64,000 nt of DNA from Squalus acanthias (taxonomy: Eukaryota). Shown here piece by piece: positions 1 to 62,587 of this stretch (its first letter is position 1; each line of letters opens with the position of its first letter). The notes beneath the pieces were generated by a model, which made no database searches, was not told the origin of the DNA, and saw only the letters and a program-made list of their open reading frames with translations. Made by a program: the position numbers and the translations under genes. The DNA lies in assembly GCA_030390025.1 (NCBI GenBank), contig CM059453.1, positions 7,316,001 through 7,380,000 on the forward strand, given 5' to 3'.

Positions 1-161
1 TGAGTTCAAGTGTAACATTGAAAAGAAACAATGTTCCCTCCTGCTAACGGCTATCAGGAGGAGTGATCAGGGTAAATACCAACTCAGAATCGAGATCGCT
101 TCGGCCATATATATTAATAGACCTCGGCCTCTGCATGCTGAGGTATTTCTTTCTGTTTTAG
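1..161 (+). CDS. Gene A V-set Ig exon (3' part)
   Basis: Frame from nt 2 reads EFKCNIEKKQCSLLLTAIRRSDQGKYQLRIEIASAIYINRPRPLHAEVFLSVL, donor G|GTGAGT at 161/162. Siglec hallmarks: E-strand CSL, no F-strand Cys, DxGxYxxR with Arg codon AGA at 86-88. Confidence 0.9.
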
Positions 162-329
162 GTGAGTTTTCCCTTTGTTCCTTTTGTACATTTTCACTCC
201 AGTGCTTCAGTACGATTCAACCTATGTGCAAACTTGCCAAATATTATAATATCCCTGACCGATCTCAACCGGTAGTTGAAACATAGGGTGCAGGGATACT
301 GATAAGTGTCGCAGATGTCTGATATCCGA

Positions 330-1600
330 AACAGAGATGTATATTGAAATTACAGCAGTAAAACAGGCCGTTCGGCCCAGAGACTCAGTGTGGCTGTTTG
401 TCCTTCACATGAGCAACACTCCGAATCGCATGTGCCTGCTCAGTTCCCATATCCCTTTATTGCAATTCCCTTCCAACACCTGTCGAACCTATTCTGAAAA
501 TGTCCACATGAGGATAGATTAGTACTTGTTGACTGAACCTAAAACTGACGTTGTTGGTCGTACATACAATACATTAACTAGCAGCTCATTATTTCCAATG
601 AAATGAAAGGCAATTAAACTAGGTCGGTTGCTAGAGTGGGTGACTTATCTGGAATGAGAGATTTGACCAGGGCGGACATTTCAAATTCTACTTCAGTCTC
701 CTTCTATCGCCTCTGTCCCGTTGCTTAATAAATTTAAGCACTTCTGTCAAATCATCACAAAATCATTTTTAAACTCATAAGATCTGCAATTTTTAACTAT
801 TTTCTTCTAATTTAAATGTTCTCATACCTGCAAGAAACTACGTGAATCCACCCTAAATCCTTCCTATAGACTGGAACCCCATACCCGCATTCTTACTCCA
901 ACTGTGAAATAACTGCTGTTCGCGTTAGAATCTCCACTAATCTCGAATTTATATTATTGATCTCCTACCATTAAACCCAGAGCTCCAGAAACATCTTCAT
1001 ACACTTTCCCACTGGAGGTGCTACTTTTACTGTCTCATGAACCTGACCCCAAATTCCTCTGCTCTTCCACTTCTCCCAGCTTCCTACGGTTCAAATGAAC
1101 ATCTACCACCTCATATTTTCTGAACTTGAATTATATCTGCCTCTTATGTCCCCATTCTACTATATATCCAGTAGCCGTTTGTAACTCCCTTTTGTTGTCT
1201 CGTTATTTCCTGGGAGTTGTACTTGCAACTTTTTCATGAGTGTCAAACTTGCGATATTGGATACGCCTCTCATTGTACAAAACGCCCAATTTTCATTTTG
1301 TTGGAATCTAAATAAATCCTAACGGGAAATTTGAACATCATTCTATTTAGCGCCATCTCCAAGTTATTGATGCACCCAGTGAGTTGAAGCAATCCCACAG
1401 CACGACTCTTTGGGACACCGAACTCGGATCCAACTATTCTGAGCAACTGCAATTAACGGCGACTCACTGCATCCTCCCTTCTAAACTGTTTGTTTTGCAA
1501 CTTTTACATTATCTTTAATTCCAAACCTCTTAATATCTTCTCCAATAATCTCCTGTGTTTACCGTCGGCAATGGCTTCCTGATTACATTTCAAGTTACTT
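330..1600 (-). mobile_element. Old degraded CR1-type LINE fragments in gene A intron
   Basis: Minus strand shows degraded RT-region motifs (GSEFGVPKSRAVGLL at 1270-1452) and a LINE-like 3' end near 340-400; shared with the paralogous intron at 63.2-64 kb. Confidence 0.55.
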
Positions 1601-1857
1601 TTTGATGAAGCGTCTTTGGACATCGCGAGGACTTAAAAGGCGCTGAATTAATGCAGTCTTTGTTCCTGCCTTTCCCTATCCAGCGCTCAGTTATCCAGCT
1701 TTCAATTAGATCTTAATTAAAAAGTAGATGTTTCAGTAACGGGAAAATCAGTTTAAGTGATAATTTATTTGTTCATTCTAATCCCAAGGTAAACCATCAC
1801 TCGCCCGCTCTAACATTGAAATGTACCTAACACGATGGCTTTCTCCCGTTTTAATAG

Positions 1858-2169
1858 AAACGCCACATATTTCAAGTTATGGCGTTCTGATCGCTGGAAA
1901 AACTGCACGACTGACCTGCTCCATCAGACACAACTGCCCGAATGGCAACCTTCAACTGAAGTGGATTAATTATAATGTGTCCCTTCCTCTTCAATGGGAT
2001 ATACAAGAAGGAGTACGAATGATCAAAGAACGTTCAGGTTCTCGGACAGTTTCATCCGTGCTGACCTTCACTCCATCATCTGCTCATCACGGGAAAATTC
2101 TGGGATGCACAATTCTAATTGATGGTATCCCAGCTCCTTCAGCACAAAATCTTATCTTGGAGATTAAAT
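1858..2169 (+). CDS. Gene A C2-set Ig domain 2
   Basis: Acceptor TTTTAATAG|, donor T|GTAAGT. LTCSIRHNCP...LKW...SVLTFTPSSAHHGKILGC matches the Siglec/MAG domain-2 pattern, including the extra Cys for the D1-D2 disulfide. Confidence 0.92.
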
Positions 2170-2555
2170 GTAAGTGTCCGGTCTAAAGTAAACACACTTA
2201 TCCTGTCGGCCAACGGCCTCAAAATTTGCACTTTTACCACAAGTAATTTATTAAGTGTTAGAACTGCATCAAAGAATGCATCATGAAAAGCTCAGCCTCT
2301 GTACCAGTAGAGCTCACTTCGATAATCAATGGTTCGGAATGGCTCTCATCTAATTCTGATTAGTCATATTTCATTAGTAACATTCATATGCATGAATCAA
2401 TGATGGTGCCTCCAAGAGATTTTTTAATGTGAGAGTTAATCTTTATTCTAACAACTTACAGTCAGGTTCTCAGTTTAGTCAGTGATAAATGCAAGCAACA
2501 AGGCCATGCCGAGTGAGGATCTGAAGCTATGACACCAGATCTCAGCTCTGTTTGT

Positions 2556-2690
2556 GCATAATAAGAATTTAAGAATTAGGAACAGGACTCGGCCATACGG
2601 GCCCTTCGAGCCTGCTCCGCCACATCGGCAATCATGGCTGATCATCAAACTCAACTCCAAATTCCCGCCCGATCCAAATACCCAATATAA
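2556..2690 (-). mobile_element. CR1-type 3' terminal fragment
   Basis: Reverse complement of the same 3' hairpin and TTCTTA tail seen at 12245-12339. Confidence 0.7.
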
Positions 2691-2755
2691 TGAATTAATT
2701 AGGAGATCAATTATTCTTATTCAGCAATCACGTTTTTCTTTAACGCTTGCTTCAG

Positions 2756-3012
2756 ATGGATTGGAAATCCCAACCGTCAACTCCTCTATAGTAGCTGTGA
2801 AAGGAAGTTCATTATTATTGTACTGCACGGCCTGGGGGAAGCCCCTGGTCAGCTTAAGTTGGGTGAAAAATGGTGAAGAGACCAGCAGGTCTTCCACTGG
2901 TGAACTAAAGCTGATATTCCACAACATTCGTTCTGAAGACGCGGTGAATATTGGTGCATAGCTGAAAATGCCCTGGGCACCTCAAAACGTTCCACACAGA
3001 ATTCAGTACATT
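2756..3012 (+). pseudogene. Gene A C2-set Ig domain 3 exon with 1-nt deletion
   Basis: Acceptor TTCAG|, donor T|GTAAGT, length 257 nt (not a multiple of 3). Reads ...LYCTAWGKPLVSLSW...IRSED, then after GC at 2941-2942 resumes as GEYWCIAENALGTSKRSTQNSVH in another frame; the uncorrected frame hits TAG at 2959-2961. Confidence 0.9.
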
Positions 3013-3937
3013 GTAAGTATGTATGCATTTTCAATTAGCTAGTAGCCTTTCACTTCAAGAATTCTGCATTAATTCCAATTTTCTCTTGCCTGCTTGCTGG
3101 AAGGCGCCCATGTGCATGAGTTTGGGACAGTTTCACCCCTTCCCGCGGAAATAGCGGCAAACTACCTCGATGGCTCCAATAATGGAAACTAACCTGGTAT
3201 CTCGCTCAGTATGACAGGAGTGGAATATGGCACAATGTCTCATAAATGCAGCAGACCTTACATTTATGAGGTTGCGACACAAGCACATTAACTGGGACCT
3301 TTATTCTACAACTAATTATTCATAAATTATACTCGTAGTCTGAAAGAGACAATTTTCCAATCCTTAGAACTGATTTGCAGCAATTTAATGAGCACAGATT
3401 CTCTCGAAAAAAATCTAATTAAATCGTGTTAAGCTAACTTCTGTTACTTGTATTAACGTTGAGTTAATAGTGTAATATTCTCGATACTTGGTTCTTTGAA
3501 GTGTCCCCTTGTTAGCCGGACGTTTATTGAAGAATCACGTCAGTCCACCACAAAGGAAGATGTTGAAAATAGTACACAAAGTGAAGACATTGACATGAAT
3601 TGACCTTTTAAAACAGTGACGGATGAGACACGTTTGTGTGTATATTATACATAATCAAATCTCTGAGCTAGCTCCATCTGAGGGCCCCTCACAACATCTG
3701 TCAGGAGATGTATTGATGGACTGAACACTCATTGGATTTATTATGGAATTGTTCCTAACGAGCTCACCTGTTATAAGTGAAAATATAAGAAGCCATGAAC
3801 TGGTGAAACACAGCCTGCTTCATCTTAAAATATAACAACCAGAACTATTATTGTTAGTTCAACTCATTACTTAATTGTATTTCGACACTACAACTGTTTT
3901 CATGATCATTTCCTATTGAAGTTTACATTTTTTTTAG

Positions 3938-4225
3938 ATAAAGCCACAATTTTAGCAGGCCCGACATGCACCAACTCTGAAAATTGGACGAATTGTAACT
4001 GCCGGATGAGAGCCAATCCCCCGGGAAACATCACGTGGGGCCTCAATGGGAGAATCCTCACTGGGGACAGGTCAGATGTGGAAATCATCTGCTGGGCGGT
4101 GAATAGTCTCATCATGGAGAGCTCCCTGAGATTGACTCACCCAACTGGAACCGGAAACCTGATCTCATGTGTTGCAGCAAACGAGCACGTTGATTCTGTC
4201 AGTAAATACCAGCTCCACTCTAAGG
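3938..4225 (+). CDS. Gene A membrane-proximal Ig domain 4
   Basis: Acceptor TTTTTAG|, donor G|GTACGT, 288 nt. GPTC...CNCRMRANPPGNITW...ISCVAANEH resembles the membrane-proximal domain of MAG and several CD33-related Siglecs. Confidence 0.9.
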
Positions 4226-5049
4226 GTACGTGTTTGATTTGTCTGTAATTTAATACTATAAGGATTTGGTCCATCACTGGTCAGTCACTTACTGAACATT
4301 GTTAGTTTCAGCTAATACCAGCTCCATTCAGCAGGTCCACACTGAATCTCTCTCGAATTAGTGTAAGGAACTCTTTCCATCAGTGGTCAATCACCAACTG
4401 AAAGGTGCGGTCGGAATTTTCCATTTAAACTTTCAGTCTTCTGATACTGGCTCGGTTTATATTTTTAGATATGATGGAATTATCTGAACACCAGAAGTAG
4501 CCATTGATCTTGGAAAACAAATTCTTCTGAATTAAGATAACCCCATTAGCAAATCCAAATTAATCTTAATACATGATAACAAACTGCAATCTACCCTTTT
4601 GTATGTACATGCTCATTTCGATCTTGTTCAGACTCATTTAAGTATGTAATGCCGATATTTAATAAGCTATGTCAAACTGAATTATCTCTATAGATTATAA
4701 ATCTTACCGCTGTAACTGGTGATCTTGGCGGGCCGGTATTCTGATTGGTTTGTGCCCAATGTTTTTCCGAGGGTGGGTTGTCGCATGAACTTCATTTTTC
4801 AATTATGATTTTTACACCAGCGTATCTGAAATTATTTATTTAAAAATTACGCCAGGCCGCAACACAGGAATAAAATGCTGTTTTGCAATTATCATCAGGT
4901 TATGACAAGCGGAGTGCCTCACTTTCCATTAGCTTTCTGATCCGAACATAAAGGAAACTTGATACCTCACACTCATAAATGTGCTTCGAAGACTGTTGTT
5001 TAAATCGACTTCCCTAAGGTAGAGCAATGTTTCTTTCCGACTTTTTTAG

Positions 5050-5143
5050 GAATATTCTCCAGGACAATTCTTCTCATCATCAGAGGAGGAGCCAGTGGGA
5101 TGTTGTTACTAATTGCAGTCGTGCTCCTGCTGAAGATACAAAG
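5050..5143 (+). CDS. Gene A transmembrane exon
   Basis: Acceptor CTTTTTTAG|, donor AG|GTATGA. In phase with exon 4: GIFSRTILLIIRGGASGMLLLIAVVLLLKIQ(R). Confidence 0.85.
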
Positions 5144-6278
5144 GTATGAGTGATTCCTAATTACATAGAATGGAGTTTTAAAGGGGATCCTGCATCAGAA
5201 ATTCCGTGTATAAAAAGCTCGTTGAAATTAATCTCCGTGAGTAGAGTGAGCACCTGCCATAATCGAAGCGGAAAGGAGGAGGGTCAATCGTCACCTGACC
5301 AGTCGCTTGCATCTCCCAGCTTCAGCTATAGACCAATATTAGTGGCTACTTGAACGAGGCTATCTGTGCATTCTTCTTGTTATATTATTGCTGTTTTTTT
5401 CCTTATGTTTAAACTGAAATTTTTGGACTTCTGATCGCTGGCGCGCTATTTGAGAGGGATTGTTTTCACCTACCGTGTAATCTAGGAAAAATGCTCAGTA
5501 TGCTCGAAGAATGAACAGAGAAAACCGTTCAGTTCGTTTCTGCTGCTGGCTTTACGGGGCACCCTCACACAAGCCTCCTTGCCATGTCAGGCTCCCAGCA
5601 TAAAACTAAACCAGAATGATATTAAGTTCTAACAATCAAGCAAGACCAGCAAACTGTAAAACAACAAACAAATAGTAAAGTTAACGTGACACATATGTTT
5701 ACAGTAGTGATTCAGTTTGTTTGGCTCCTGGATTAGAATAATATATTTCAAAATTGGGTGTGACTGATGTGCTAAAGTATGATATAAACGTTTATTTATG
5801 TTGGGCTCGTTATCTTATTCTTACCAGTGACTTAATCTATTTGGCCTGACGAGCTCTCACTGAAAGCTCTCGACAGAATCCACGCTTATAATGGATAGGC
5901 TGATAATTAGCTTCAAGGAGGTGAATGGCTCCAAGTGAATTCCAATTATATCTATTCGGTTTACAATGTGCTGCAAACCAAAATTACTCTTCAACAAATC
6001 ACAAACGATGTTTACAATGGAAATCAGTGACGGGCTCCTCAGGTAGGCGCCCTCCACAACAGATAATGATTCGGCAACAGACATAACAAGATGAGTTAGA
6101 GCACTCTTGTGAGTGGTGCTCGATTATAACCCTTCATATACCATGACATTATTAAAGATGCCAATTCCATGCTAACTAATATATAAAAGCTTCTTTCAGT
6201 GATACTGAGGTAGGATCTCAATGTGGTTATTGATGAAAATTGTATATTCCCCATTTCACACTCAAAATTTGATATATA

Positions 6279-7060
6279 ATAATGACTTGGCCTTGGGGGT
6301 ACAGGGCACAATTTCGAACTTTGCAGGTGACACCGAACGTGGAAGTGTAGTGAACAGTGAGGAAGATTGTAATAGACTTCAAAGGGACAGAGACATGCTG
6401 GTGGAATGGGTGGACACATGGCAGATGAAAGTCAACACAGAAAATTGTGAGGTGTTAGATTTGGGTAGGGAGAATGAGGAGAGACAAGACATACTAAATG
6501 GTACACTTTTAAAGGGGGTGCGGGAACAGAGAGATTTGGGGCTGCTTGTGCACGACACTTTGTAATTGGCAGGACAGGTGAACAAAGCAGTCAATAAACA
6601 TTATGGAAGCCTGGACTTTATAAATATTTGCATAGAGTACAAAAGCGAGGAAGTTGTGCTAAACCTATAGAAAACATTGTTTCGGCCCCAGCTGGAGTAT
6701 TGTGTACAATTCTGGGCACCACACTATAGGAAGGAGGTGAAGGCTTTGGAGAGGGTGCAGAAAAGATTTACTAGAATTGTTCCAGGGACGAGGGATTACA
6801 GTGATGTGGATAGGCTGGAGAAGCAGGGGCTGTTTTCCTTAGAGCAGCGAAGGCTAAGAGGAGATTTGATAGATATGATCAAAATCATGAAGGGTTTAGA
6901 TAAAGTAAATAACGATAAACTGATTACAATGCCTCAAATGTCGTTAACCAGTTGCACAGGTTTCAGGCAATTGGCAAATCAACCAAATGCGACATCAGGA
7001 CACACTTTTGTTAAGCAAAAAGTGGTTAGCATTTGAAATGCACTAACTGAAAGGGTTATG
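6279..7060 (+). mobile_element. 5'-truncated CR1-type LINE (ORF2 C-terminus)
   Basis: ISNFAGDT...WQMKVN...RPQLEYCVQFWAPHY...LEQRRLRGDLI, with stops. Confidence 0.9.
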
Positions 7061-7405
7061 GCTCTAGTAATGATAGATTGTAATGTGTTTGCACGTTGAA
7101 ACTCTTCCATCTGCGACGTAATGAGGTGTTAACATATTGAATGATCCTCCTATGTCCAAACAGCTCAATCAGCTTTCAACATGAGCAAGCAACACCGCGC
7201 CATTAACGAGCTTCATCGATAAAGTCAACAGTTCCCTTTTGAAATGTAGGCAGATGGACATTGAAAAGAATTGGAGAGCGGACGTGGTCTGTGCTAATCG
7301 GAAAACCTAAAAGACATCTGTCTCTCCTGACCTACGGACGTCCTTCACAGTATACATTAAGTAAACATTTAAGTAATATATTATCTATTATTTGTTATGT
7401 TTTAG

Positions 7406-7484
7406 GAAGAAGAGCAGTGAGACTGCATGTGTGCCGTAAACGGCTGGTGGTGCGATGGTGTACACTGGGGATCTAAACGGTGAG
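7406..7484 (+). CDS. Gene A first cytoplasmic exon with in-frame stop
   Basis: Acceptor TGTTTTAG|, donor GAG|GTAAGT. Phase-2 join gives RKKSSETACVP* (TAA 7437-7439), followed in frame by TAGGAMVYTGDLNGE. Confidence 0.7.
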
Positions 7485-7944
7485 GTAAGTTAAGCCAAGC
7501 TGGAGTGACAGTAGTAGAATGTTTGTTGTGTTTTCAACGAGCGAGTGACCCAGAACAGGCAAAAACCCAATAGATAAATGGGACTTTCAGAAATTTGGTC
7601 ACTCGTGTTGTTAAGGGAGGACTAGCCACTTAGAGTGAAGTATTTCGACGGACGCTGTGGATTGTATTTTTAAAACGTTCCTGGGATGTGGGCGTCGCTG
7701 GCAATGACAGCAATTATTGCCTATCCCTAATTGCTCTTGTAAATATGGTGTTGAGCCGCAATTTGGATGTTATTTATTTCTTGCATTAAGACCTCAAAAC
7801 GCATATCTCATGAATGAGCTCCATTTGAAAAGTTACCAGAGATTAAATAGTTAGCTTTGCTCTGGTGCAGACAGCGCACTCCCATCGTGTTCAGCTCTAA
7901 ATCTGCAATCGCTCCATATCTAAGACGAATGTCTTCCGTTACAG

Positions 7945-8092
7945 AGAGACGATCACCTGAGCCTCGCAATCGACTCAACCAGCTCAGAATGAAGAAATTG
8001 TGAACGTGACTGTCAATGTCTCACACATCCGCAATCATGAATCATATAGCCCAAATAAGAAGACCTGCGATTAGGCACCAATTAAACATAAG
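7945..8092 (+). pseudogene. Gene A fossil terminal ITIM/ITIM-like exon
   Basis: Acceptor TTACAG| at 7944. Frame from 7982 reads AQNEEIV[N]VTVNVSHIRNHESYSPNKKTCD[*]APIKHK; removing the LINE at 8093-8639 joins it to TGA at 8647-8649. Confidence 0.7.
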
Positions 8093-8639
8093 AAAAGAAG
8101 AAATAGGTGCAGGAGAAGGCCATTCGGCCCCTCGAGCCTACTGAGCCATTCAATAATATCATGGCTGATCTGATCTTGGCCTGAACTCTACTTTCCCGCT
8201 CTCTCCCCGTAACACTTGACTCCCCTGTAGTTAAAATATCTGTCTATCTCCTCCTTGAATATATTCAATGACTCCGCCTCCACAGCTCTCTGGTTTAGAG
8301 AATTCCAAAGATTCATGGCTCTCTGAGAGAAGAAAATCCTTCTCATCTCCGTCTTCAATGGGCGACCCCTTATCCTGAAACTATGCCCCCTAGTTATAGA
8401 TTCCCCCACGAGGGGAAACATCGTCTATGCATCCTACCTGTAAAGCCCCCTCAGAATCTGATATGTTTCAATAAGTTCTTCTAAACTCCATTCAGTATAG
8501 TCCCAACCTGCTCAACCTTTCCTCATAAGACAACCCCTTCATCCCAGGAATCAACCTAGTGCACCATCTCTGAACTGCCTCCAATGCAAGTATATCCCTC
8601 CTGAAATAAGGAGACCAAAACTGTAAGCAGTACTCCAGT
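8093..8639 (-). mobile_element. 5'-truncated CR1-type LINE with 7-bp target-site duplication ACATAAG
   Basis: Minus ORF 8188-8421 (TRGHSFRIRG...FFSQR...LWNSL); ACATAAG at 8086-8092 and 8640-8646. Confidence 0.9.
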
Positions 8640-9741
8640 ACATAAGTGAAAGTTAACTGTTAGCGCGGATGGTCTTGAAACAGAAAATGCCTGAACACAC
8701 CTGATGTTATGAAGTAAAAGAGACAGCATTACAATGTAATGAAGACTATGAGAATGGAGAACTTTCAGCATATAAGTGGATTTGTTTGATTTAAATTCAC
8801 AATCTCGAGTTACTTGAAATACAGTAGGGAGTTTGAATTTTTTGTGAATGTAACTGTTCAACATTTTTCTCTATTCTGTGAAAATAACCATTTTACAAAG
8901 CATTTCTAACATCGTCTTTGTCTGTTAATCTGCTGAAATGTATTGGCCCACAGTATGAACCCTCAAAACCGTGTAGCAGGTGCCAAAAAAATTACAATTA
9001 AACAGCAGAAAATACACTTTATTTTCGACTGCGCCTGAAAATCAGGTGCGAATTACAAGAGAACCATGAATATGGGCGTAGACGAGTTCATGCGAGAGTT
9101 CCAGACAATTGTCACTACTCATTCATCTGGACATATTTGATTTGTGCCCCGATTGTGAACCTGGACAGGTATTCCCAGGGCATTTCATTTAGTTTTCCGC
9201 TCAACCAGCACAACACTCGAGTTTCTGCTTGTTTCCTCTAGTTATGTCATCACAATTCAGGCAAATTGATCGAATCAGAGCTGAAGAGCAAGGAATTTTA
9301 AACATAAGTGAGCTACGCCCATGACCACTTACGCTCAATTTTTTCCTTCATCTTTTACGCAGTTTCAAGTTTTCATTTTATCCAATCAGGTTCCGCCCAC
9401 GAAACTGGCCTTGCACGCAGGTCGTAATGTGAGATTGCGCTGATTCTGAAAGGCTCATAAAATTGCGCTCATTTTCTTAGGCGCAAAGGCAGTATAAGGC
9501 ATATTTTAATAGTTTTCTCATAACAAAACAAAGTTAATTTCTAAGCCACAGTCTGCTGTACAACAATTAAACTATTAAATGTTTCAGTATCATACTTTTC
9601 GTCATTTTCTGTTATGTTAAATCAGTTTACGCACAGGTGGAGGACTGGTCACCCTTAAGAAATATGTGTATTTGCTGATTAATCCATTTAAAGCTGTCTG
9701 AATAGGACTGCGCGAGGATACATTCTTAGAAGGAATACATG

Positions 9742-24934: not shown

Positions 24935-27900
24935 AAGAATCATAGAATGGGTTACAGCACTGAAGGAGGACATTCGGCCCGTCGAGCCCGTGCCAGCTCT
25001 CTGCAAGAGCACTTCAGCTAGACCCACTCCCCCCGCCCTTTTCCGGTAGCCCTGCATTTGTTTTCCTTAAGTTACTCAGACAGTTCCCTTTTGAAAGCCA
25101 CGATTGAATCTTCCTTCACCACCCTTTCAGGCAGTGCATTGCAGATCATAACCACTCGCTGCATATACAAAGTTTTTCTGCATGTCGCCTTTCTTTCTTC
25201 TGCCAATCACCTTGAATCTGTGTCTTCTGGTTCTCGACACCTTTCGCCAATGGGAACAGTTTTTCTCCATCTATTCGGTCTGGACCCCTCATGATTTTGA
25301 ACACCTCTATCAAATCTCCTCTCAACCTTCTCTGCTCTAAGGAGAACAACCCCTTCTTCTCCAATCATAATTTAATAGGACAAAGTCAGCATGGTTTTAC
25401 GAAGGGGAAGTCATGTTTGACAAATTTGCTGGAGTTCTTTGAGGAAGTAACATATAGAGTGGATAAAGGGGAACCAGTGGACGTAGTGTATTTAGACTTC
25501 CAAAAGGCATTTGACAAGGTGCCACACAAAAGATTATTGCTTAAGGTAAAAAATCACGGGATTGGGGGTAATATTCTGGCATGGATAGAGGATTGGCTAT
25601 CTAACAGAAAGCAAAGAGTTGGGATAAATGGTTCATTCTCAGACTGGCAATCAGTAACTAGTGGTGTTCCACAGGGGTCAGTGCTGGGTCCCCAACTCTT
25701 CACAATCTATATTAACGATTTGGAGGAAGGGACCAAGTGTAACATATCAAAATTTGCAGATGATACAAAGATGGGAGGGAAAGTAGTGAGTGAGGAGGAC
25801 ATAAAAAACCTGCAAGGGGACATAGACAGGCTAAGTAAGTGGGCAGAGATTTGGCAGATGGAATACAACACTGGAAAGTGTGAGGTGATGCACTTTGGCG
25901 GGAAAAATCCTAGAGCAATTTATTATCTTAATGGCAAGAAACTGGAGAGTACTGAAGTGCAAAGGGATCTGGGGGTCCTGGTGCACGAAATTCAAAAGGT
26001 TAGTATGCAGGTGCAGCAAGTGATTAAGAAGGCAAATTGAATGTTGGCTTTCATTGCTAGGGGGATAGAATATAAAAATAGGGAGGTATTGCTTCAGTTG
26101 TACAAGGTATTGGTGAGACCGCACCTGGAATACTGCATACAGTTTTGGTGTCCTTACTTAAGGAAAGACATCCTTGCTCTCGAGGCAGTGCAAAAAAGGT
26201 TCACTCGGTTAATCCCGGGGATGAGGGGGTGGTCATATGAGGAGAGGTTGGGTAGATTGGGACTCTACTCATTGGAGTTCAGAAGAATGAGAGGCGATCT
26301 TATTGAAACATATAAGATTGTGAAGGGGTTGGATCGGGTGGATGCGGGGAGGATGTTCCCGATGACGGGTGAGACGAGAACTAGGGGACATAGTCTTAGA
26401 ATAAGGGGCTGCTCTTTCAAAACTGAGATGAGGAGGAACTACTTCACTCAGAGGGTGGTAGGTCCATGGAATATGCTGCCACACAAAGCTGTAGAAGCTA
26501 CAACATTAATTAAATTTTAAACAGAAATAGACAGTTTCCTGGAAGTAAAGGGCATTAAGGGTTACGGGGAGCGGGCAGGAATTTGGACATGAGTCTAGGT
26601 TCGGATCGGTCATGGCCCTGTGGGTAGTGGAGCGGGCCCAGGGACTGTGTAGCCTGATTCTGCTCCTATTTCGTGTGTGCAATTCTGTTAGATGCAGGAG
26701 ATGGTTCTGTGATAGATAGTAGATTGGCGGTTAGGATCAGATCAGCCATGATCTTATTGAATGGCGGAGCAGGCTCGAGGGGCCGATTGGCCTACTCCTG
26801 CTCCTATTTCTTATGTTCTTATGTTCTTATGTAGTCTATCCACGTAACTGAAGGCCCCCATCCATGGAAGCCTTCTTCTCATCTTTTCTGCACCCTCTCC
26901 AAGTCCTTCACATCCTTCCTAAAGTGCAGTTCCCAGAATTGGACATAATACCTCAGTTGAGGCCGAACCTGTTTTGTTTAATCTTCAGAATGTCTTCATA
27001 GCATTTGAATTCTAAGACTCTATTTATGAAGCCCAGAATCGCGTAGGATTTTTAGTTATTTAAACAGGATTTGTCTTTAACATGTCCGTGCTGGCTTTCC
27101 TTAATTAATCCACACTTGTCTTAGTGACTGTTAATTTTGTTCCTGAGTATTGTTTCTAAAAGCTTCCCCACTACCGAGGTTAATCTGACTGGCATGTAGT
27201 TGCTGGGTTTAACATCACATTCTTTTTTGAACAAGGGTGTAACATTTGCAATTCTCCAGTACTCTGGCACCACCCCCATATCAAAGGAGGATCGAAAGAT
27301 TATGGACAGCACCTCCGTGATTTCCACGTTTCCATCCCTCAGCATCTTAGGATGCATCCCATCCGGTCTTTTTGACTTATCTACGTTTAGTACAGCCAGC
27401 CTTTCTAGTACCTCCTCCTTATCAATTTTAAACCCAACCAGTATCTAATTACTTCCTCTTTTACCACGAATTTGGCAGCATCTTCTTCCTTGTAAAAGGC
27501 AGATGCAAAGTACTCATATAGTTCCACAGCCATGCCCTCTGCCTCCATGCGTAGGTTTCCATCTTGTTCCTTAATCGGCCCCACCCCTCCTCTTACTACC
27601 ACTTTCCTATTTATATGCCTATTCAACACTTTTGAATTACCTTTTATGTTAGCTGCCAACCTATTCACATATTCTCTCTTTACCCCTCTTATTTCCTTTT
27701 ATACTTCCACTCTGAACTTTCAATATTCAGCCTGGTTCTCACTTGTATTCTCAACCTGACATCTGTTATACGTGTCCTTTTTCTGCTACATCTTACTCAC
27801 TGTCTCTTTCTTCACCCAGGGAGCTCTGGCTTTGGTCGGTCTACCTTTCCCCCTCGTAGGAATGTACCTCGACTGTACCCGAACCACCTCCTCTTTAAAG

Positions 27901-28500
27901 GCAGCCCATTGTTCGATTACAGTTTTACTTGCCTAAATATTTAATTCCAATTTACCTCTGCCAGATCCATTCTCAACCCACTGAATCTGGCCTTTTTCGA
28001 ATTAAGTATTTTTACTCTAGATTGCTCCCTGTCATTTTCCATTGCTAATCTAAACATTCTTCTACTGAGATCACTTTTCCCTAAATGTCCCCCGACTGAC
28101 ACTTGCACTACTTGACCCACCTCATCTCCCAGAACCAGAACCAGCCATGCGTCCTTCCTCGTTGGGCCAGAAACATGCGGATCAAGAAAGATTTCCTGAA
28201 CAGACTATAGAAATTCTTGCCCCTCTCTGCCCTTTACACTATTACTATCCCAGACTATATTAGGAAAGTTGAATTTCCCATTATCAATACTCTAAATTTC
28301 TGGCACCTCTCTGTAAATTCCCTGCAAAGTTGCTCCTCTATATATTACCCACTAGTTGGTGTCCTATAGAATATACCTGGAAGTGCAAAGGCACCTCTAT
28401 TATTTCTCAACTCTAATCAAATAGATTCTGTCCTTGGCCCCGCCATGATATCCTTTCTCTCCAGCACTGTAATATTCTCATTGTGCAATTCTGCCACCCA
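24935..28500 (-). mobile_element. CR1-type LINE with RT core deleted, array unit 1 (interrupted by nested LINE)
   Basis: Endonuclease and linker motifs on the minus strand run into the post-RT region at ~27050. Confidence 0.88.
25364..26832 (+). mobile_element. Young CR1-type LINE nested in array unit 1 only
   Basis: ORFs 25291-26040 and 26041-26520 (QHGF, YLDFQKAFD, VPQGSVLGP, FADD), (TTCTTATG)n tail. The empty site CTCCAGTCT is seen in units 2-4. Confidence 0.96.
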
Positions 28501-28720
28501 CCTCCTTTTTTCCCTTCCCTGCCTCTTACACTCTAATGAAATGTAAAGCACTAATCTGTCCAAAAAAACTGATTCAGTTGTCTCAGCTTCATTCCTACTT
28601 TTCCCTGCTTCAGCGGATTTCTCTCTGCAAACGAAAACATCTGCTTAGCTACCCCAACTGTAAAATTCCATTTCACAAGCTCATCTATTATTAGCGTAAA
28701 TTTCTCTATTTTATCTAAAA

Positions 28721-29515
28721 GGTAATGCATTTGGGGAGCGCTAACAAGGAAAGGGAATATACATTAAATATTAGGACACTGAATAGTGTAGAGGAACAAA
28801 GGGACCATGGAGTGCATGTCCACTGAACCCTGAAGGAAGCAGGCCAGGTAGATGAGGTGGTTAAGAAGGCATACGGAATGCTTGCCTTTATCAGCCGTGG
28901 CATAGAGCACAAGAGCAGGGGGGTTATGCTTCAACTGTACAAAACACTAGTTAGGCCTCAGCTAGAGTACTGCGTGCAGTTCTGGTCAGCACATTATAGG
29001 AAAGATGTGATTGCACTACAGAGGTTACAGAGGAGATGTACAAGGATGTTGCCGGGAGTAGAGAATCTTAGCAATGAGGAAAGACTGGAAATGTTGGGTC
29101 TGTTTTCCTTGTAACAAAGGAGGCAGACGGGAGACCTTATAGAGCTGTATAAAATTATGAGGGGCACAGATAAAGTGGATAGAAAGGACCTATTTCCCTT
29201 AGCAGAATGATCACAAACCAGGGGACACAGATTTAAAGTAATTGGTGGAAGGTTTAGAGGGATTTGAGGGGAAATGTCTTCACCCACAGTGTTGCGGGGT
29301 TCTGGAACTCACTGCCTGAAAGGGTGGTAGAGGAAGGAACACTAACCACATTTAAAAAGTACTTGGATGTGCACTTGGAATGCTGTAACCTGCAGGGCTA
29401 CGGACCAAGAGCTCGGAAGTGAGATTAGGCTGGATAGCTCTTTGTTGGCCAGCGCGGACACGATGGGCCGAAATGGCCTCCTCCCGTGCTGTAACATGCT
29501 ATGATTATATGACTC
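28721..29515 (+). mobile_element. CR1-type 3' fragment, array unit 1
   Basis: KKAYGMLAFISRGIE...RPQLEYCVQFW; GLFSL* stop shared by all four units. Confidence 0.9.
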
Positions 29516-30459
29516 TAAAAAGAAAGACATTGCATTTATATCGCACTTTTCACTACCACCGAACGTCCAAAGTGCTTTACAGCCAGTGAAGTTCTTTTGA
29601 ACTGCAGCAATTTTGCAATGTAAGCAACGCGGCATCCAATTAGCACTCAGCAAGTTCCCACAAACAGCAACGTGTTACCTCGGTCCTAAGCTCTGGAATT
29701 CCCTGCATAATCCTCGCCGCCTCGCTACCTCCTTTCCTCCATTAAGACATTCCTTAAAACCTACCTCTTTGACCAAGCTTTTGGTCACCTGCTCTAATTA
29801 ATCCTTACGTGGCTCGGTGTCAGTTTGTTTTTCTTAAAATACTCCTGTGCAGCGCCTTGGGAAGTTTTATGTCGTTAAAGGCGCTCTATCAATACAAGTT
29901 GTTGTTATTGTTGTTGTTGAGTAATTTAGGGAATTTGGTACAGATTCATGCCCCAGTTTGGTTTTAATGACTAGTTTAGGGACATTTTTTCTCACCCAGG
30001 TACTAGTTCTGTTTTTGACTAGTTTAGGGATGTGCGTTTAGGTTTGAGACCCAGTTTGGGTTTAATACTGCTGGTTGATATGAAGCATCTTCAGTTTCTC
30101 ACCCATTGTTCTCTTCTGATGTGCTGCTCCGCGGTGGGTTTGTTTACGGCTAGTGCGTGTAGCAGCTCCAGAGCAGAGGCGTGCAGAGCTCGGTTCTATT
30201 TAGAGCCCAAATAGTTGTGGTGACTGCAGGCCATCTGTGATGTCTTAGGGTATAAATCATTTTGGACAATTGAACCCGAATGAGGTTAATTGTGGTCAGG
30301 CAGCATCCGGTTATACATTGTGCTGTATTGTGAAATGACCTATAATGTTTGCAGCTTCATGTTTATGCTGTAATGTAAAGTGAGAGCCCATAGCATCCAT
30401 GTTAATAATATATGGAGATAACAAATAATACCTGCTGATAATTATCGCGCTATTAATTA

Positions 30460-30860
30460 ATCAGCTGTGACTAAAAGTCCAGAGACTTCAGCTCACATTC
30501 TGAGCTAGCACTTCATTGCAGTGCTGCACTGTCGGACGTGCTGTCTTTAAGATGAAACGATGAAGCTTGGCCCGTTCCGTCCTCAAGGTCGTCCTAAAAA
30601 TAAGAGCATGCCACTATTTCGAAGAAGAGCAGCAAATATCTCGGCGGTGTCCTGGGCCAATATTAATCCTTCAACCAACAAAACCAAAACAAATTATCCA
30701 GCTATTATCAGATAGCTGTTTGTGGGAGCTTGCTGTGCTCAAATGGTCTGCCACGTTTCATACATTACAAAAGTGACTACAGATCAAAAGTACTTAATTG
30801 GCGGTAAAACGTTTTGGGTCGTCCTGAGGTGATGAAAGAATCCATATAAATGTAACTTCT
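30460..30860 (+). mobile_element. Deu-domain SINE remnant in array (copies at ~35560, ~40645, ~45705)
   Basis: Homologous to 23730-24170. Confidence 0.6.
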
Positions 30861-31496
30861 TTCTTCCATTGTATCTTCTATGTTCTCCACTTAGATGTTG
30901 CTGCATGTGACGTTATTAACAAATCAATAACATCTTTATGCCACAATTACCCCTCTCCAGTACTAATAAAAGTTGCAAATTTATTTGATAAAACGGTTGA
31001 AAAACTTTGTCTTCACTTTCAGGCGCTGGCCGACCCGCGGTGTATTTCAAATTTTTTATCTATTTTTTTTAAGATTGGATTGCCTCTGCTGGGATTGTAA
31101 TATATTTCTTTCAAACAGAGACAAAAGCCATATTTGGTTCCTTTATCAGACACTAAGCATTGCATCCAGACCCATTCCACACAAAATATATTCCACCAGC
31201 CATCTCTAACTGTCAACTGCAACCCACTAGGCCATGAGGTCGCACATTCCCGCAGCCAAAAGACAGGACAATACATCAAAACCACCAATGCAGCGCAGTT
31301 CTGACTGATTCACAAAATGCTGCAGGGAATGGCTTTAGATGGTTCGGGTAGCATGTGGAATATGAACGGCATCTCTCACTCCCTGCATCCTCATTGTGTT
31401 TAATTTAAAGTTCGCCACATCAACTCCCACTTTCCCTCTATCCTTTCTCAAGATCTCCAATCAGTGAAGATCTACCGTATTCCCCCTCCCAACCTA

Positions 31497-33600
31497 GAAT
31501 CAAAGAATCATAGAATGGGTTACAGCACTGAAGGAGTACATTCGGCCCGTCGAGCCCGTGCCAGCTCTCTGCAAGAGCACTTCAGCTAGTCCCACTACCC
31601 CCGCCCTTTCCCCGTAGCCCTGCAATTCTTTTTTCCTAAAGTTACTCTGTCTGTTCCCTTTTGAAAGCCACGATTGAACCTTCCTCCACCACACTTTCAG
31701 GCAGTGCATTGCAGATCATAATCACTCGCTGCGTATAAAAAGTTGTCCGCATGTCGCCTTTGATTCTTCTGCCAATCACCTTGAATCTGTGTCTTCTGCT
31801 TCTCGATACCTTTCGCCAATGGGAACAGTTTTTCTCCATCTACTCGGTCTAGACCCCTCATGATTTTGAACACCTCTATCAAATCTCCTCTCAACCTTCT
31901 CTGCTGTAAGGAGAACAATCCCTGCTTCTCCAGTCTATCCACGTAACTGAAGGCCCCCATCCATGGAAGCCTTCTTCTCATCTTTTCTGCACCCGCACGA
32001 AGTCCTTCACATCCTTCCTAAAGTGCAGTTCCCAGAATTGTACACAATACCTCAGTTGAGGCCGAACCTGTGTTGTTTAAATCTTCAGCATGACTTCCTA
32101 GCATTTGAACTCTAAGACTCTATTTGTGAAGCCCAGGATCCCGTAGGCTTTTTAGTTGTTTAAACAGGATTCGCCTTTAACATGCCCGTGCTGGCTTTCC
32201 TTAATTATTCCACACTTGTCTTAGTGACTGTTAATTTTGTTCCAGATTATTGTTTCTAAAAGCTTCCCCACTACCGAGGTTAAACTGACTGGCATGTAGT
32301 TGCTGGGTTTATCCTCACATATTTTTTGAACAAGGGTGTAACATTTGCAATCTCCAATAATCTGGCACCACCCCCGTATCCAAAGAGGATCGAAAGATTA
32401 TGGACAGTACCTCCGTGATTTCCACTTTTCCTTCCCTCAGCATCTTAGGATGCATCCCATCCGGTCTTGTTGACTTATCTACTTTAAGTACAGCCAGCCA
32501 TTCTAGTACCTCCTCCTTCTTAATTTTTATCCCATCCAGTAGCTCACTACTTCCTCTTTTACCACGAATTTGGCAGCATCTTCTTCCTTGTTAAAGGCAG
32601 ATGCAAAGTACTCATTTAGTTCCTCAGACATGCCCTCTGCCTCCTTGCGTACTTTTCCATCTTGGTCCCTAATCAGCCCCACCCCTCCTCTTACTTTCCG
32701 TTTACTATTTATATGCCTATTCAACACTTTTGAAATACCTTTTATGTTAGCTGCCAACCTATTCACATATTCTCTCTCTGCCCCTCTTATTTCCTTTTAA
32801 ACTTCCCCTCTGAATTTTCAATATTCAGCCTGGTTCTCACTTGAATTCTCAACCTGACAGCTGTTATACGTGTCCTTTTTCTATCCATCTTACTCACTGT
32901 CTCTTTCGTCACCCACGGAGCTCTGGCTTTGGTCGGTCTACCTTTCCCCCTCGTAGGAATGTACCTCGACTGTACCCGAACCACTTCCTCTTTAAAGGCA
33001 GCCCAATGTTCGATTACAGTTCTGCTTGCCAATATTTAATTCCAATTAACCTGGCCCAGATCCATTCTCAACCCACTGAAATTGGCCTTTTTCCAATTAA
33101 GTATTTTTAATCTAGATTGCACCCTGTCCTTTTCCCTTGCTAATCTAAACCTTCTGATACTGTGATCACTTTTCCCTAAATGTCCCCCTACTAACACTTG
33201 CTCTACTTGACCCACCTCATTCCCCAGAACCAGATCCAGCCATGCGTCCTTCCTCGTTGGGCCAGAAACATCCGGATCAAGAAAGTTTTCCTGAACAGAC
33301 TATAGAAATTCTTGCCCCTCTCTGCCCTTTACACTATTACTATCCCAGACTATATTAGGAAAGTTGACGTCCCCCATTATCAATACTCTATATTTCTGGC
33401 ACCTCTCTGTAATTTCCCTGCAAAGTTGCTCCTCTATATATTTCCCACTGGTTGGTTTCCTATAGAATAAAACTAGAATTGCAATGGCACCTCTATTATT
33501 ACTCAACTCTAATCAAATATATTCTGTCCTTGGCCCTCCAGGATATCCTTTCTCTCCATTACTGTAATATTCTCCTTGTGCAATTCTGCCACCCACCACA
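31497..33600 (-). mobile_element. RT-deleted CR1-type LINE, array unit 2
   Basis: Copy of the unit 1 element without the nested insertion. Confidence 0.88.
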
Positions 33601-33819
33601 TTTTTTTCCTTCCCTTCCTCTTACACTCTCGAGAAATGTAAAGATCAAACCTGTCCAAATCTAACTGATTTAGTTGTCTCAGCTTCATTTCTACTTTTCC
33701 CTACTTCAGCGGATTTCTCTCTGAAAGCGAAAACTACTGCTTAGCTACCCCAACTGTATAATTCCATTTCACAAGCTCATCTATTATTAGCGTTAATTTC
33801 TCTATTTTATCTAAAATAT

Positions 33820-34610
33820 AATGCATTTGGGGAGCGCTAACAAGGAAAGAGAATATACATTAAATATTAGGACACTGAATAGTGTAGAGGAACAAAGGGA
33901 CCTTGGAGTGCATGTCACAGATCCCTGAAGTAAGCAGGCCAGGTAGATAAGGTGGTTAAGAAGGCATACGGAATGCTTGCCTTTATTAGCCGTGGCATAG
34001 AGCACAAGAGCAGGGGGGTTATGCTTCAACAGTACAAAACACTAGTTAGGCCTCAGCTAGAGTACTGCGTGCAGTTCTGGTCACCACATTATAGGAAAGA
34101 TGTGATTGCACTAGAGAGGTTACAGAGGAGATGTACAAGGATGTTTCCGGGAGTAGAGAATCTTAGCAATGAGGAAAGACTGGAAAGGCTGGGTCTGTTT
34201 TCCTTGTAACTGAGGAGGCAGACGGGAGACCTTATGGAGGTGTATAAAATTATGAGGGGCACAGATAAAGTGGATAGAAAGGACCTATTTCCCTTAGCAG
34301 AAGGGTCACAAACCAGGGGGCACAGATTTAAAGTAATTGGTGGAAGGTTTAGAGGGATTTGGGGGGAAATTTCTTCACCCAGAGGGTTGCGGGGGTCTGG
34401 AACTCACTGCCTGAAAGGTTGGTAGAGGCAGGAACCCTAACCACATTTAAAAAGTACTTGGATGTGCACTTGGAATGCTGTAACCTGCAAGGCTACTGAC
34501 CAAGAGCTGGGAAGTGGAATTAGGCTGGATAGCTCTTTGTTGGCCGGCGCGGACACGATGGGCCGAAATGGCCTCCTCCCGTGCTGTAACATGCTATGAT
34601 TCTATGACTG
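33820..34610 (+). mobile_element. CR1-type 3' fragment, array unit 2
   Basis: ORFs 33952-34209 and 34234-34425. Confidence 0.9.
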
Positions 34611-36578
34611 TCAAAAGAAAGACATTGCAATTATACCGCACTTTTCACGACCGCCGAACGACCCAATGTGCTTTACAGTCAGTGAAGTTCTTTGGAAGTG
34701 TAGCAATTTTGCAATGTAAGAAACGCGGCATCCAATTGGCACTCAGCAAGTTCCCACAAACGGCAACGTGTTGCCGAGGTCCTAAGCTCTGGAATTCCCT
34801 CCATAATCCTCGCCGCCTCGCTACCTCACTTTCCTCCATTAAGACAATCCTTAAAACCTACCTCTTTGACCAAGCTTTTGGTCACCTGCTCTAATTTATC
34901 CTTTTGTGGCTCGGTTTCAGTTTGTTTGTCTTAAAATACTCCTGTGCAGCGCCTTGGGACGTTTTATGTCGTTAAAGCGCTATATCAATAAAAGTTGTTG
35001 TTATTGTTGTTGTTGAATAATTTAGGGAATTTGGTACAGATTCATGCCCCAGTTTGGTTTTAATGACTAGTTTAGGGACATTTTTTCTCACCCAAGTACT
35101 AGTTATGTTTTTGACTAGTTTAGGGATGTGCGTTTAGTTCTGAGACCCAGTATGGGTTTAATACTGCCGGTTCATATGAAGCATCTTCAGGTTCTCACCC
35201 ATTGTTCTCTTCTGAGGTGCTGCTCGGCGGTGGGTTTGTTTACGCCTAGTGCGTGTACCAGCTGCAGAGCAGAGGCGTGCAGAGCTCGGCTCTATTTAGA
35301 GCCCAAATAGTTGTGGTGACTGCAGGCCATCTGTTACGTCTTAGGGTGTAAGTCATTTTGGACAATTGAACCAGAATGAGGTTAATTGTGGTCAGGCAGC
35401 ATCCGGGTATACATTGTGCTGTATTGTGATATGACCTATAATTTTTGCAGCTGCATGTTTAAGCTGTAATGTAAAGTGAGAGCCCATAACATCCATGTTA
35501 ATAATATATGGAGATAACAATTAATACCTGCTGATAATTATCTCGCTATTAAGTAATCAGCTGTGACTGAAAGTCCAGAGACTTCAGCTCACATTCTAAG
35601 CTGGCACTTCATTGCAGTGCTGCACTGTCGGAGGTGCTGTCTTTAAGATGAAACGATAAAGTGTGGCCGGCTCCGTCTTCAAGTTCGTCCTCATAATAAA
35701 AGCATGCCACTATTTCGAAGAAGAGCAGCAAAGATCTCGGCGGTGTCCTGGGCCAATATTAATCCTTCAACCAACATAACCAAAACAAATTATCCGGCTA
35801 TTATCAGATAGTTGTTTGTGGGAGTTTGCTGTGCTCAAATGGTCTGCCACGTTTCATACATTACAAAAGTGACTACACATCAAAAGTACTTAATTGGCTT
35901 TAAAACGTTTTGGGTCGTCCTGAGGTGATGAAAGGCTGAATATAAATGTAACTTATTTCTTCCATTGTATCTTCCACGTTCTCCACTTAGATGTTGCTGC
36001 ATGTGACGTTATTAACAAATCGATAACATCTTTATGCCACAATTACCCCTCTCCAGTACTAATAAAAGGTGCAAATTTATTTGATAAAACGGATGAAAAA
36101 CTTTGTCTCCACTTTCAGGCTTTGGCCGACCCTCTGTGTTTTTCAACACTTTATCTCTTTTTATTAAGAATGGATTGCCTCTGCTGGGATTGTAACATAT
36201 TTCTTTCAAACAGAGACAAAAGCCATATTTGGTTCCTTTATCAGACAGTAAGCATTGCAACCAGACCCACTCCCACACAAAACATCTTCCACCAGCCATT
36301 TCTAACTGTCAACTGCAACCCACTAGGGCATGAGGTCACACATTCCCGCACCCAATGGACAGGACATAGATCAAAACCACCAGTGCAGCGCAGTTCTGAC
36401 TGATTCTCAAAATGCTTTAAGATGGTTCGGGTAGCATGTGGAATATGAACGGCATCTCTCACTCCGTGCATCCTCATTGTGTCGAATTTAAAGTTCGTCA
36501 CATCAACTCCCACTTTCCCTCTATCCTTTCTCAAGATCTCCAATCAGTGAAGCTCTACCGTATTCCCGCTCCCAACCT

Positions 36579-38690
36579 AGAATCAAATAATCATAGAATG
36601 GGTTACAGCACTGAAGGAGGACATTCGGCACGTCGAGCCCGTGCCAGCTCTCTGCAAGAGCACTTCAGCTAGTCCCACTACCCTAGCCCTTTCCCCGTAG
36701 CCCTGCAATTCTTTTTTCCTTAAGTTACTCAGTCAGTTCCCTTTTGAAAGCGACGATTGAATCTTCCTCCACGACCCTTTCAGGCAGTGAATTGCAGATC
36801 ATAACCACTCGCTGCGTATCAAAAGTTTTTCCGCATGTTGCCTTTGATTCTTCTGCCAATCACCTTGAATCTGTCTCTTCTGGTTCTCGACACCTTTCGC
36901 CAATGGGAACAGTTTTTCTCCATCTACTCGGTCTAGACCCCTCATGATTTTGAACACCTCTATCAAATCGCCTCTCAACCTTCTCTGCTCGAAGGAGAAC
37001 AACCCCTTTTTCTCCAGTCTCTCCACGTAACTGAAGGCCCCCATACATGGAAGCCTTCTTCTCATCTTTTCTGCACCCTCTCTAAGTCCTTCACATCTTT
37101 CCTAAAGTGCAGTGCCCAGAATTGGACACAATACCTCAGTTGAGGCCGAACCTGTGTTGTTTAAATCTTCAGCATGACTTCCTAGCATTTGAATTCTAAG
37201 ACTCTATTTATGAAGCCCAGGATCCCGTAGGCTTTTTAGTTATTTAAACAGCATTTGCCTTTAACATGCCCGTGCTGGCTTTCCTTAATTATTCCACACT
37301 TGTCTTAGTAACTGTTAATTTTGTTCCAGATTATTGTTTCTAAAAGCTTCCCCACTACCGAGGTTAAACTGACTGGCATGTAATTGCTGGGTTTATCCTC
37401 ACATTCTTTTTGGAACAAGGGTGTAACATTTGCAATTCTCCAGTACTCTGGCACCACCCCCATATCCAAGGATGATCGAAAGATTATGGACAGTACCTCC
37501 GTGATTTGCACTTTTCCATCCCTCAGCATCTTACGATGCATCCCATCCGGTCTTGTTGACTTATCTACTTTAAGTACGGACAGCCATTCTAGTTCCTCCT
37601 CCTTAACAATTTTTATCCCATCCAGTATCTAATTACTTCCTCTTTTACCACGAATTTGACAGCATCTTCTTCCTCGTTAAAAGCAGATGCAAAGTACTCA
37701 TTTAGTTCCTCAGACATGCCCTCTGCCTCCATGCGTACATTTCCATCTTGGTCCCTAATATGCCCCACCCCTCCTCTTACTTTCCGTTTACTATTTATAT
37801 GCCTATTCAACACTTTTGAAATACCTTTTATGTTAGCTGCCAACCTATTCACATATTCTCTCTCTGCCCCTCTTATTTCCTTTTACGGTTCCCCTCTGAA
37901 CTTTCAATATTCAGGCTGGTTCTCACTTGTATTCTCAACCTGACACATGTTATAAGAGTCATTTTTCTGCTCCATCTTACTCACTGTCTCTTTCGTCACC
38001 CAGGGAGCTCTGGCATTGGTCGGTCTACCTTTCCCCCTCGTAGGAATGTACCTCGACTGTACCCGAACCACTTCCTCTTTAAAGGCATCCCATTGCTCGA
38101 TTACAGTTCTGCTTGCCAATATTTAATTCCAATTAAACTGGGCCAGATCCATTCTCAACCCACTGAAATTGGCTTATTTCCAATTATGTATTTTTACTCT
38201 AGATTGCTCTCTGTCCTTTCCATTGCTAATCTAAACCTTCTGATACGGTGATCACTTTTCCCTAAATGTCCCCCTACTGACACTTGCTCTACTTGACCCA
38301 CCTCATTCCCCAGAACCAGATCCAGCCATGCGTCCTTCCTCGTTGGGCCAGAAACATACGGATCAATAAAGTTTTCCTGAACAGACTATAGAACTTCTTG
38401 CCCCTCTCTGCCCTTTACACTATTACTATCCCAGACTATATTAGGAAAGTTGAAGTCCGCCATTATCAATACTCTATATTTCTGGCACTTCTCTGTAATT
38501 TCCCTGCAAAGTTGCTCCTCTATATATTTCCCAATAGTTGGTGGCCTATAGAATACACCTAGAAGTGCAATGGCACCTCTATTATTACTCAATTCTAATC
38601 AAATAGATTCTGTCCTTGGCCCCGCCAGGATATCCTTTCTCTCCAGCACTGTAATATTCTCCTTGTGCAATTCTGCCACCCACCTCCTTT
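36579..38690 (-). mobile_element. RT-deleted CR1-type LINE, array unit 3
   Basis: ORFs 36799-37065, 37305-37541, 37613-37852, 38386-38592 (GVFYRPP, MADFNFP). Confidence 0.88.
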
Positions 38691-62528: not shown

Positions 62529-62587
62529 GTGAGTTTGCCATTTATTGTTCTTGTACATTTTTATTCCATTGTTTTAGTATGAATTAA

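Follow-up and report, generated by a model that had tools for sequence, protein, structure and literature searches.

How does a gene of an inhibitory receptor family come to have a last exon in which neither signalling tyrosine is left, and is such a gene dead? The question is raised by positions 7945–8092 of a 64,000-nucleotide stretch of the Squalus acanthias genome (the window), which an earlier note, made from the letters alone, had described as a fossil exon for an ITIM and an ITIM-like motif. Two codons of this stretch, AAC at 8003–8005 and TAG at 8072–8074, stand where the motif tyrosines are expected, in the contexts EEIV-N-VTV and TCD-stop-APIKHK. As that note pointed out, they share one frame and lie 23 codons apart, which can be seen directly in the sequence. 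However, a loose pattern of two near-tyrosine motifs separated by 23 codons fits 175 of 123,360 positions in the window and is therefore common, so that the claim of a fossil exon rests on homology.

That homology is clear. A tblastn search with the chondrichthyan gene model P0008 matches 7865–8089 (E 7.6e-10), and a profile of homologous tails, built with the window excluded, has its best match at 7850–8092 (iE 7.2e-11). The same profile picked up the exon only once in the 64-kb window, and a Pfam search found no domain in the exon or in the LINE piece that follows it. We compared 18 homologous chondrichthyan tails, which are not independent of each other, several being close Heptranchias paralogues. 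Tyrosine occupies the AAC site, the middle one of three motif positions, in 16 of the 18 tails, and the TAG site in all 13 tails that reach it; the other five end before it, P0012 exactly before it. Both tyrosines are present in 11 of 18 tails, always with a spacing of 23, and no tail among the 18, all of them open, lacks both. The set leaves out isoforms and close paralogues, four models whose sequence ends ahead of the motifs of the last exon (P0001, P0006, P0073 and P0160) and more distant sequences (the second tail of P0004, and P0051, P0089, P0090, P0098, P0138 and P0142); the MAG proteins P0105 and P0108 were treated apart. Single tyrosine-motif losses or early ends occur in the open models P0012, P0004, P0011, P0002, P0005, P0014 and P0140. 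Intact relatives thus have tyrosine at both sites, as the earlier note had predicted, and the exon is a true fossil of an ITIM/ITIM-like exon. We conclude that 7945–8092 is the genuine terminal exon of a Siglec-like gene copy in a shark and that it is no longer translated.

The gene lies on the forward strand at 1–8092 and consists of a V-set exon, three C2-set exons, a transmembrane (TM) exon and two tail exons, with V-set domain, C2-set domains, TM segment and tail in the order of the Siglec family. The window begins within the V-set exon, which leaves the leader and the first half of that exon outside. The 3' part of this exon (1–161) ends in a GT donor, gives weak matches to the Pfam Ig_CD22 and V-set models and aligns with sialoadhesin (E 0.08). 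The Arg of its YQLRIE motif aligns with those of YNFRFE in sialoadhesin and YFFRME in CD33, a weak match (E 0.08–0.3) over a 53-residue piece. In Siglecs, a conserved Arg on the F strand of the V-set domain has a role in sialic-acid binding. Of nine aligned homologues only two have this Arg; the window gene retains it. C2-set exon a (1858–2169) is open with phase 1-1 and was placed by tblastn and acceptor context. Ig exon b (2756–3012) is one base short near 2941, where the tblastn match splits into 2758–2940 and 2943–3017, and as assembled its reading frame stops inside the exon. The ectodomain frame is therefore not open as assembled; exon b is phase-symmetric, and only when it is skipped does the frame stay open, up to the stop in the tail. 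Ig exon c (3938–4225) is open, resembles the last Ig domain of MAG and is 60–71% identical to ten shark proteins, which have been named automatically as Siglec, MAG, hemicentin or 'uncharacterized'. The TM exon (5050–5143; phase 1-2), placed by tblastn and the tail profile, has an Arg codon at 5082–5084, near the outer edge of the TM segment, and in three models that bear tyrosine motifs a basic residue lies at most a few positions away from it (P0009, Lys; P0011 and P0014, Arg). The first cytoplasmic exon (7406–7484; phase 2-0) was placed by the tail profile and codon reading. All 12 splice sites within the window are canonical and the exon phases fit.

The terminal exon begins after a ttacag acceptor in phase 0, as set by the previous exon, and in this phase it is out of frame with the tyrosine motifs, in agreement with the earlier note, which had placed the first part of the exon out of frame with the motif reading. 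There are 58 nucleotides before the AAC codon compared with 25 codons (75 nucleotides) in P0008 and P0009, a shortfall of 17 nucleotides that is counted against these two models, with their exon boundary taken from the alignment. In addition, a TGA at 7958–7960 interrupts the motif frame. The lesions that the earlier note listed are real; it had not seen an upstream stop, a damaged third tyrosine motif, a LINE insertion and a frameshift in an Ig exon.

The upstream stop is in the first tail exon, which reads KKSSETACVP and then, ten residues in, an in-frame TAA (7437–7439), 45 nucleotides upstream of the last exon junction. Behind this stop lies the third tyrosine motif, MVYT, which has lost its hydrophobic residue at +3 through a three-codon gap; in the family, 15 of 18 tails have tyrosine at this position. 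With the first tail exon skipped, translation would run into the TGA at 7958–7960 and leave a tail of five residues, so that the tyrosine motifs lie beyond the reach of both splice forms examined. The ITIM consensus is I/V/L/SxYxxL/V, as given in the part of PMC13358205 that we consulted. The window gene has no translated sequence of this form, as a stop precedes the motifs and the two sites read Asn and stop; it encodes a short tail without an ITIM.

We examined whether these lesions might be artefacts by comparing contigs from four of nine sequencing runs with matching sequence (X1, X6, X7 and X8) over 1700–8800. An X8 contig, from another sample and study, covers 7944–8076 with neither mismatch nor gap, although the TAG lies only two letters from its end. 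Its depth is 2.9 and its first 60 letters are unplaced; 2.9 × 60/237 gives 0.73, which equals the depth of X8 in the bin that holds the preceding exon, and on this depth arithmetic the contig is most likely spliced to that exon. An X7 contig (7729–7983) crosses the intron–exon border unspliced, with two other letters and no gap. None of the runs listed with matching sequence is recorded as RNA, and taking X7 and X8 to be RNA is a guess. An X6 contig from organism B covers 7829–8080 with six other letters and without a gap, from which it follows that organism B shares the 17-nucleotide loss. The window does contain N gaps, and the best X1 contigs differ from it by 2–3%. Nevertheless, the identity of the X8 contig means that the terminal-exon lesions are no assembly error, and with X6 and X7 also free of gaps we regard assembly or sequencing error in this exon as a virtually negligible prospect. 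The X7 and X8 contigs cover the tail region, with the Ig and TM exons outside their reach. At the exon b frameshift, an extra A behind 2941 is found in three X1 contigs (243.7 of 543.5 depth, 45%) and two X6 contigs (11.5 of 29.8, 39%), which may or may not include the allele of this copy itself.

The terminal exon ends at 8092, which is exactly the last native codon of the ending APIKHK. A 5'-truncated LINE 3' end lies directly behind it in antisense orientation (8093–8639, minus strand), 70–74% identical to four other copies in the window, and is flanked by a 7-bp target-site duplication, ACATAAG, with a left copy at 8086–8092 and a right copy at 8640–8646. The right copy is followed by a TGA (8647–8649), the displaced native stop, and then by the old 3' UTR. 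The native protein therefore ended in IKHK-stop, similar to the IKHN, IKFK and IKWK of homologues. An alternative in which KHK (8084–8092) is the tail of the LINE, suggested by other LINE copies that align from 8085, was rejected, both on the homologous endings IKYN, IKHN and IKFK and on the identical seven bases plus TGA at the far end of the insert. ACATAAG occurs six times on the forward strand of the window, two of these exactly at the LINE ends, and it also matches the 8-bp tail repeat of the LINE family, which suggests that pairing between target and tail guided the insertion. The insert, which we take to belong to a CR1-like clade, has the 3' end of a 5'-truncated RT element, a short tandem tail and a flanking direct repeat. 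One of its four relatives forms the 3' end of a longer element of this family (9692–12340), which has a (TTCTTATG)3 tail and both an endonuclease and an RT domain. At the right boundary, many LINE contigs have loose ends at 8638 and an X1 contig rejoins at 8640; five X1 contigs span 8682–8685, to the right of the LINE. The rejoining contig (depth 84.5) goes from 7815 to 8640 across a stretch of unknown letters, and perhaps represents a LINE-free paralogue in which the last exon is diverged or missing. The consulted part of PMC3747384 describes no target-site duplications of shark LINEs.

To which Siglecs is the family related? The earlier note had taken the spacing and the C-terminus as signs of CD33-related Siglecs, and was right that the pair in Siglec-7 is 23 residues apart: the part of PMC7226588 that we consulted gives Y437/Y460 for Siglec-7 and Y433/Y456 for Siglec-9 as ITIM plus ITIM-like pairs. 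However, gecko and frog MAG also have a spacing of 23 and end in YAEIRVK, so that neither feature singles out the CD33-related Siglecs. Among PDB structures, the family profile matches MAG best (5lf5, residues 311–478, E 3.4e-40), with a far weaker match for the CD33-related Siglec-8 (E 2.9e-16), and P0008 is colinear with gecko MAG over the last Ig domain and everything behind it, with all three tyrosines in register. By similarity ranking alone, the family thus appears closer to MAG than to CD33-related Siglecs, and membership in the CD33-related group is not supported by the sequence comparisons. The likeness to MAG (Siglec-4) has limits. MAG and P0008 are only 26% identical over the colinear part, and MAG, a single conserved gene, has five Ig domains, whereas the shark family is multi-copy and variable with three or four. 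With Siglec-7 and Siglec-9 the family shares the spacing of the pair and the clustering of paralogues. According to the part of PMC7226832 that we consulted, fish MAG carries an ITIM and fish genomes are without inhibitory CD33-related Siglecs, sharks being unmentioned there.

The closest comparison is with chondrichthyan models named automatically: P0008 from Pristiophorus ('Siglec-12'), P0009 and P0010 from Heptranchias ('Siglec-13') and P0011 from Heterodontus ('Siglec-8'). They share with the window gene the domain order, a colinear TM segment and tail and three tyrosine-motif positions, and with the window exon the spacing of 23 and an ending of the form IK-x-x-stop. By contrast, the stop in the first tail exon, the lack of any intact tyrosine motif, the LINE and the exon b frameshift are peculiar to the window copy, which also differs from seven of the nine aligned homologues in keeping the V-set Arg. 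In intact members, the first tail exon encodes one tyrosine motif and the last exon an ITIM/ITIM-like pair. The distal motif does not have the strict ITSM form TxYxxI/V, as homologues have Cys, Ser or Asn two residues before the tyrosine, and is thus ITIM-like. Overall, sequence comparison points to an expanded shark family of MAG-type Siglecs whose intact members carry three tyrosine motifs. The family tail is predicted to work like an inhibitory Siglec tail and, by analogy, may recruit SHP-1/SHP-2.

The tail of the window gene is more decayed than its ectodomain. Compared with family rates, conserved columns are lost in excess in the last tail exon (7 of 13, P 0.006) and in the first (4 of 8, P 0.016), whereas losses in the V, C2a, C2b, C2c and TM exons are within family rates (P 0.14–0.93), with 26 of 28 conserved columns kept in exon a and 33 of 37 in exon c; the counts are small and the tail was chosen because it looked broken. 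ORF-breaking lesions show the same trend: three (TAA, frameshift and TAG) fall in the 227 nucleotides of the tail exons and one in the 1,111 nucleotides of the Ig and TM exons, so that 17% of the bases hold three of the four lesions (post hoc binomial P 0.017, falling to 0.0036 when a fourth tail lesion is included). The ratio of window to family distances is 1.38 for the tail and 0.89 for C2a (bootstrap P 0.025); against C2c the difference is not significant (1.25 versus 0.93, P 0.09), and divergence of the V exon exceeds that of C2c (1.62 versus 0.93). Exon b (0.99) is no more decayed than exon c (0.97), and the idea that it is an old pseudo-exon, prompted by 9 of 55 conserved columns lost (P 0.135), is unsupported on these same-taxon distances. 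Among 40 listed of 707 differences from other copies, seven of nine exon positions are non-synonymous, near the neutral share; these nine positions compare paralogues and are a small, filtered set. Several conserved Ig residues are also changed in the window gene (E>K, R>S, P>A and G>V).

We propose that the tail was cut off first and decayed passively, and that the copy is now probably a transcribed, spliced pseudogene. The analysis shows the homology, the lesions, the LINE boundaries and the recurrence of the exon sequence in a second study; from these we infer the order of events, the passivity of the tyrosine losses and the present lack of protein. The first step would have been an early truncation of the tail, caused by the 17-nucleotide loss or by the TAA in the first tail exon, whichever came first. 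The untranslated tail would then have drifted, acquiring the three-codon gap, losing both tyrosine codons and five other conserved residues and receiving the LINE at the old stop. The ectodomain would have stayed near family-level conservation for longer, consistent with a phase as a short-tailed, ITIM-less receptor; its mRNA could have escaped nonsense-mediated decay (NMD), the stop lying 45 nucleotides before the last junction. A later one-base loss in exon b would finally have broken the ectodomain. The title of the earlier note, in which both tyrosines were 'knocked out', suggests a targeted loss. This does not fit an exon that lies behind a TAA and has lost 7 of 13 conserved positions, two facts that make the loss of both tyrosines unremarkable. 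Of the nine possible single-base substitutions in a Tyr codon, eight abolish the tyrosine, two of them giving a stop, and the chance of losing both tyrosines, given the general decay of the exon, is 0.21–0.29. Nothing points to a targeted removal. Selection against inhibitory signalling that took out both tyrosines while the exon was still translated is accordingly very improbable to us: single motif losses do recur in the family (the middle site is gone in 2 of 18 tails and P0012 ends before its last tyrosine), but loss of both is expected at the above rate from decay, the TAA and the frameshift each leave the exon untranslated and none of the 18 open tails has lost the pair.

Two other readings deserve more weight than selection on the tyrosines. 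The gene may be alive as an ITIM-less, short-tailed Siglec, of the form V-C2-C2-TM if exon b is skipped, an option that arises because skipping this phase-symmetric exon opens the frame, or V-C2-C2-C2-TM if the loss at 2941 is a null allele or an assembly slip. Such a receptor would be a putative decoy or an activating partner of inhibitory paralogues, signalling in the latter case by way of the TM Arg and an ITAM adaptor. Several observations are in line with a live gene: P0008, P0011 and P0014 naturally lack the exon b domain, Ig exons a and c are as conserved as in the family at large, the V-set Arg is retained where only two of nine homologues have it, the locus appears transcribed and spliced with every splice site inside the window canonical, and the family includes the short-tailed or tail-less models P0006 and P0167. 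Moreover, the part of PMC13358205 that we consulted defines activating paired Siglecs by a short tail and a charged TM residue. On the other hand, exon b, with intact splice sites and decay equal to that of exon c, does not look like an old pseudo-exon, and the conserved Ig residues named above are altered. The TM Arg lies at the outer edge of the segment and its codon context would fit a CpG transition; it argues only weakly for a live gene because relatives with tyrosine motifs (P0009, P0011 and P0014) have basic residues beside its position, and it was rejected as proof of an activating receptor on the same grounds. We consider a live gene possible but doubtful; on this reading, one stop in the NMD-blind zone would have turned an inhibitory MAG-type Siglec into an ITIM-less receptor that is still expressed. 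The remaining reading is that the whole copy died at once and its Ig exons were refreshed by gene conversion or unequal crossing-over, or that the lesions cluster by chance. Many copies share the Ig half at at least 88% identity, and summed X1 depth is about 260–615 in the non-repeat bins of 1700–5017, introns included, and 104–194 in the non-repeat TM–tail bins, with about 35 for single long contigs; summed contig depth is not copy number, however. Broken Ig fragments of another copy lie at 55670–57384, and conversion of extracellular exons has a precedent in SIGLEC11/16, where, in the consulted part of PMC5701461, it took place between the gene and a non-functional allele. Every aligned contig differs from the window at several Ig positions, so that this copy is not freshly homogenised, and we judge simultaneous death to be unlikely. 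Tail-first decay remains the reading that we prefer.

The window gene can also be set beside Siglec-14 and Siglec-16/16P, which likewise have an ITIM-less short tail next to inhibitory paralogues (PMC13358205, in the part consulted). The parallel may extend to a possible null allele and a possible conversion of extracellular exons (the consulted parts of PMC13358205 and PMC5701461). Unlike Siglec-14 and Siglec-16, the window gene has its basic residue at the TM edge, matched in inhibitory relatives, its ectodomain is frameshifted as assembled and it has kept its dead ITIM exon, which apparently continues to be spliced into the transcript.

The rest of the window contains further pieces of the cluster. 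The V-set exon region of a downstream paralogue lies at 62093–62591 and 63092–64000; it has YQFITA in place of YQLRIE, without the Arg, and its V-set intron is 84% identical to 218–1135. Yet another copy has left remnants of its Ig exons b and c, broken by stops and a frameshift, at 55670–55741 and 57044–57384, and neither tblastn nor the tail profile found a TM or tail exon behind them in the window. Positions 26833–46701 hold about four head-to-tail copies of a unit of about 5.1 kb, 91–93% identical and made up mostly of LINE fragments. A 990-bp direct repeat (48916–49906 and 53511–54500, 90.5% identity) flanks a GC-richer stretch with broken ORFs, two of which gave no Pfam match; 48916–54500 is possibly an LTR element. 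Four N gaps (1,954 bases) lie among short tandem repeats at 13059–15193.

A shark family of MAG-like, ITIM-bearing Siglecs is known here solely from automatically named gene models; as judged from literature listings, with subscription journals mostly outside the search, we found no published description of it. The pseudogene exon itself is a case of ordinary birth-and-death turnover in a cluster of immune-receptor genes, and decay that starts at the tail offers a testable route from an inhibitory receptor to a decoy or an activating partner. If the window gene is in fact expressed without an ITIM, a receptor with both the V-set Arg and the TM-edge Arg would be such a decoy or activating partner, with its dead ITIM exon preserved as 3' UTR, and a paired-receptor system would have been built independently from MAG-like genes in sharks.
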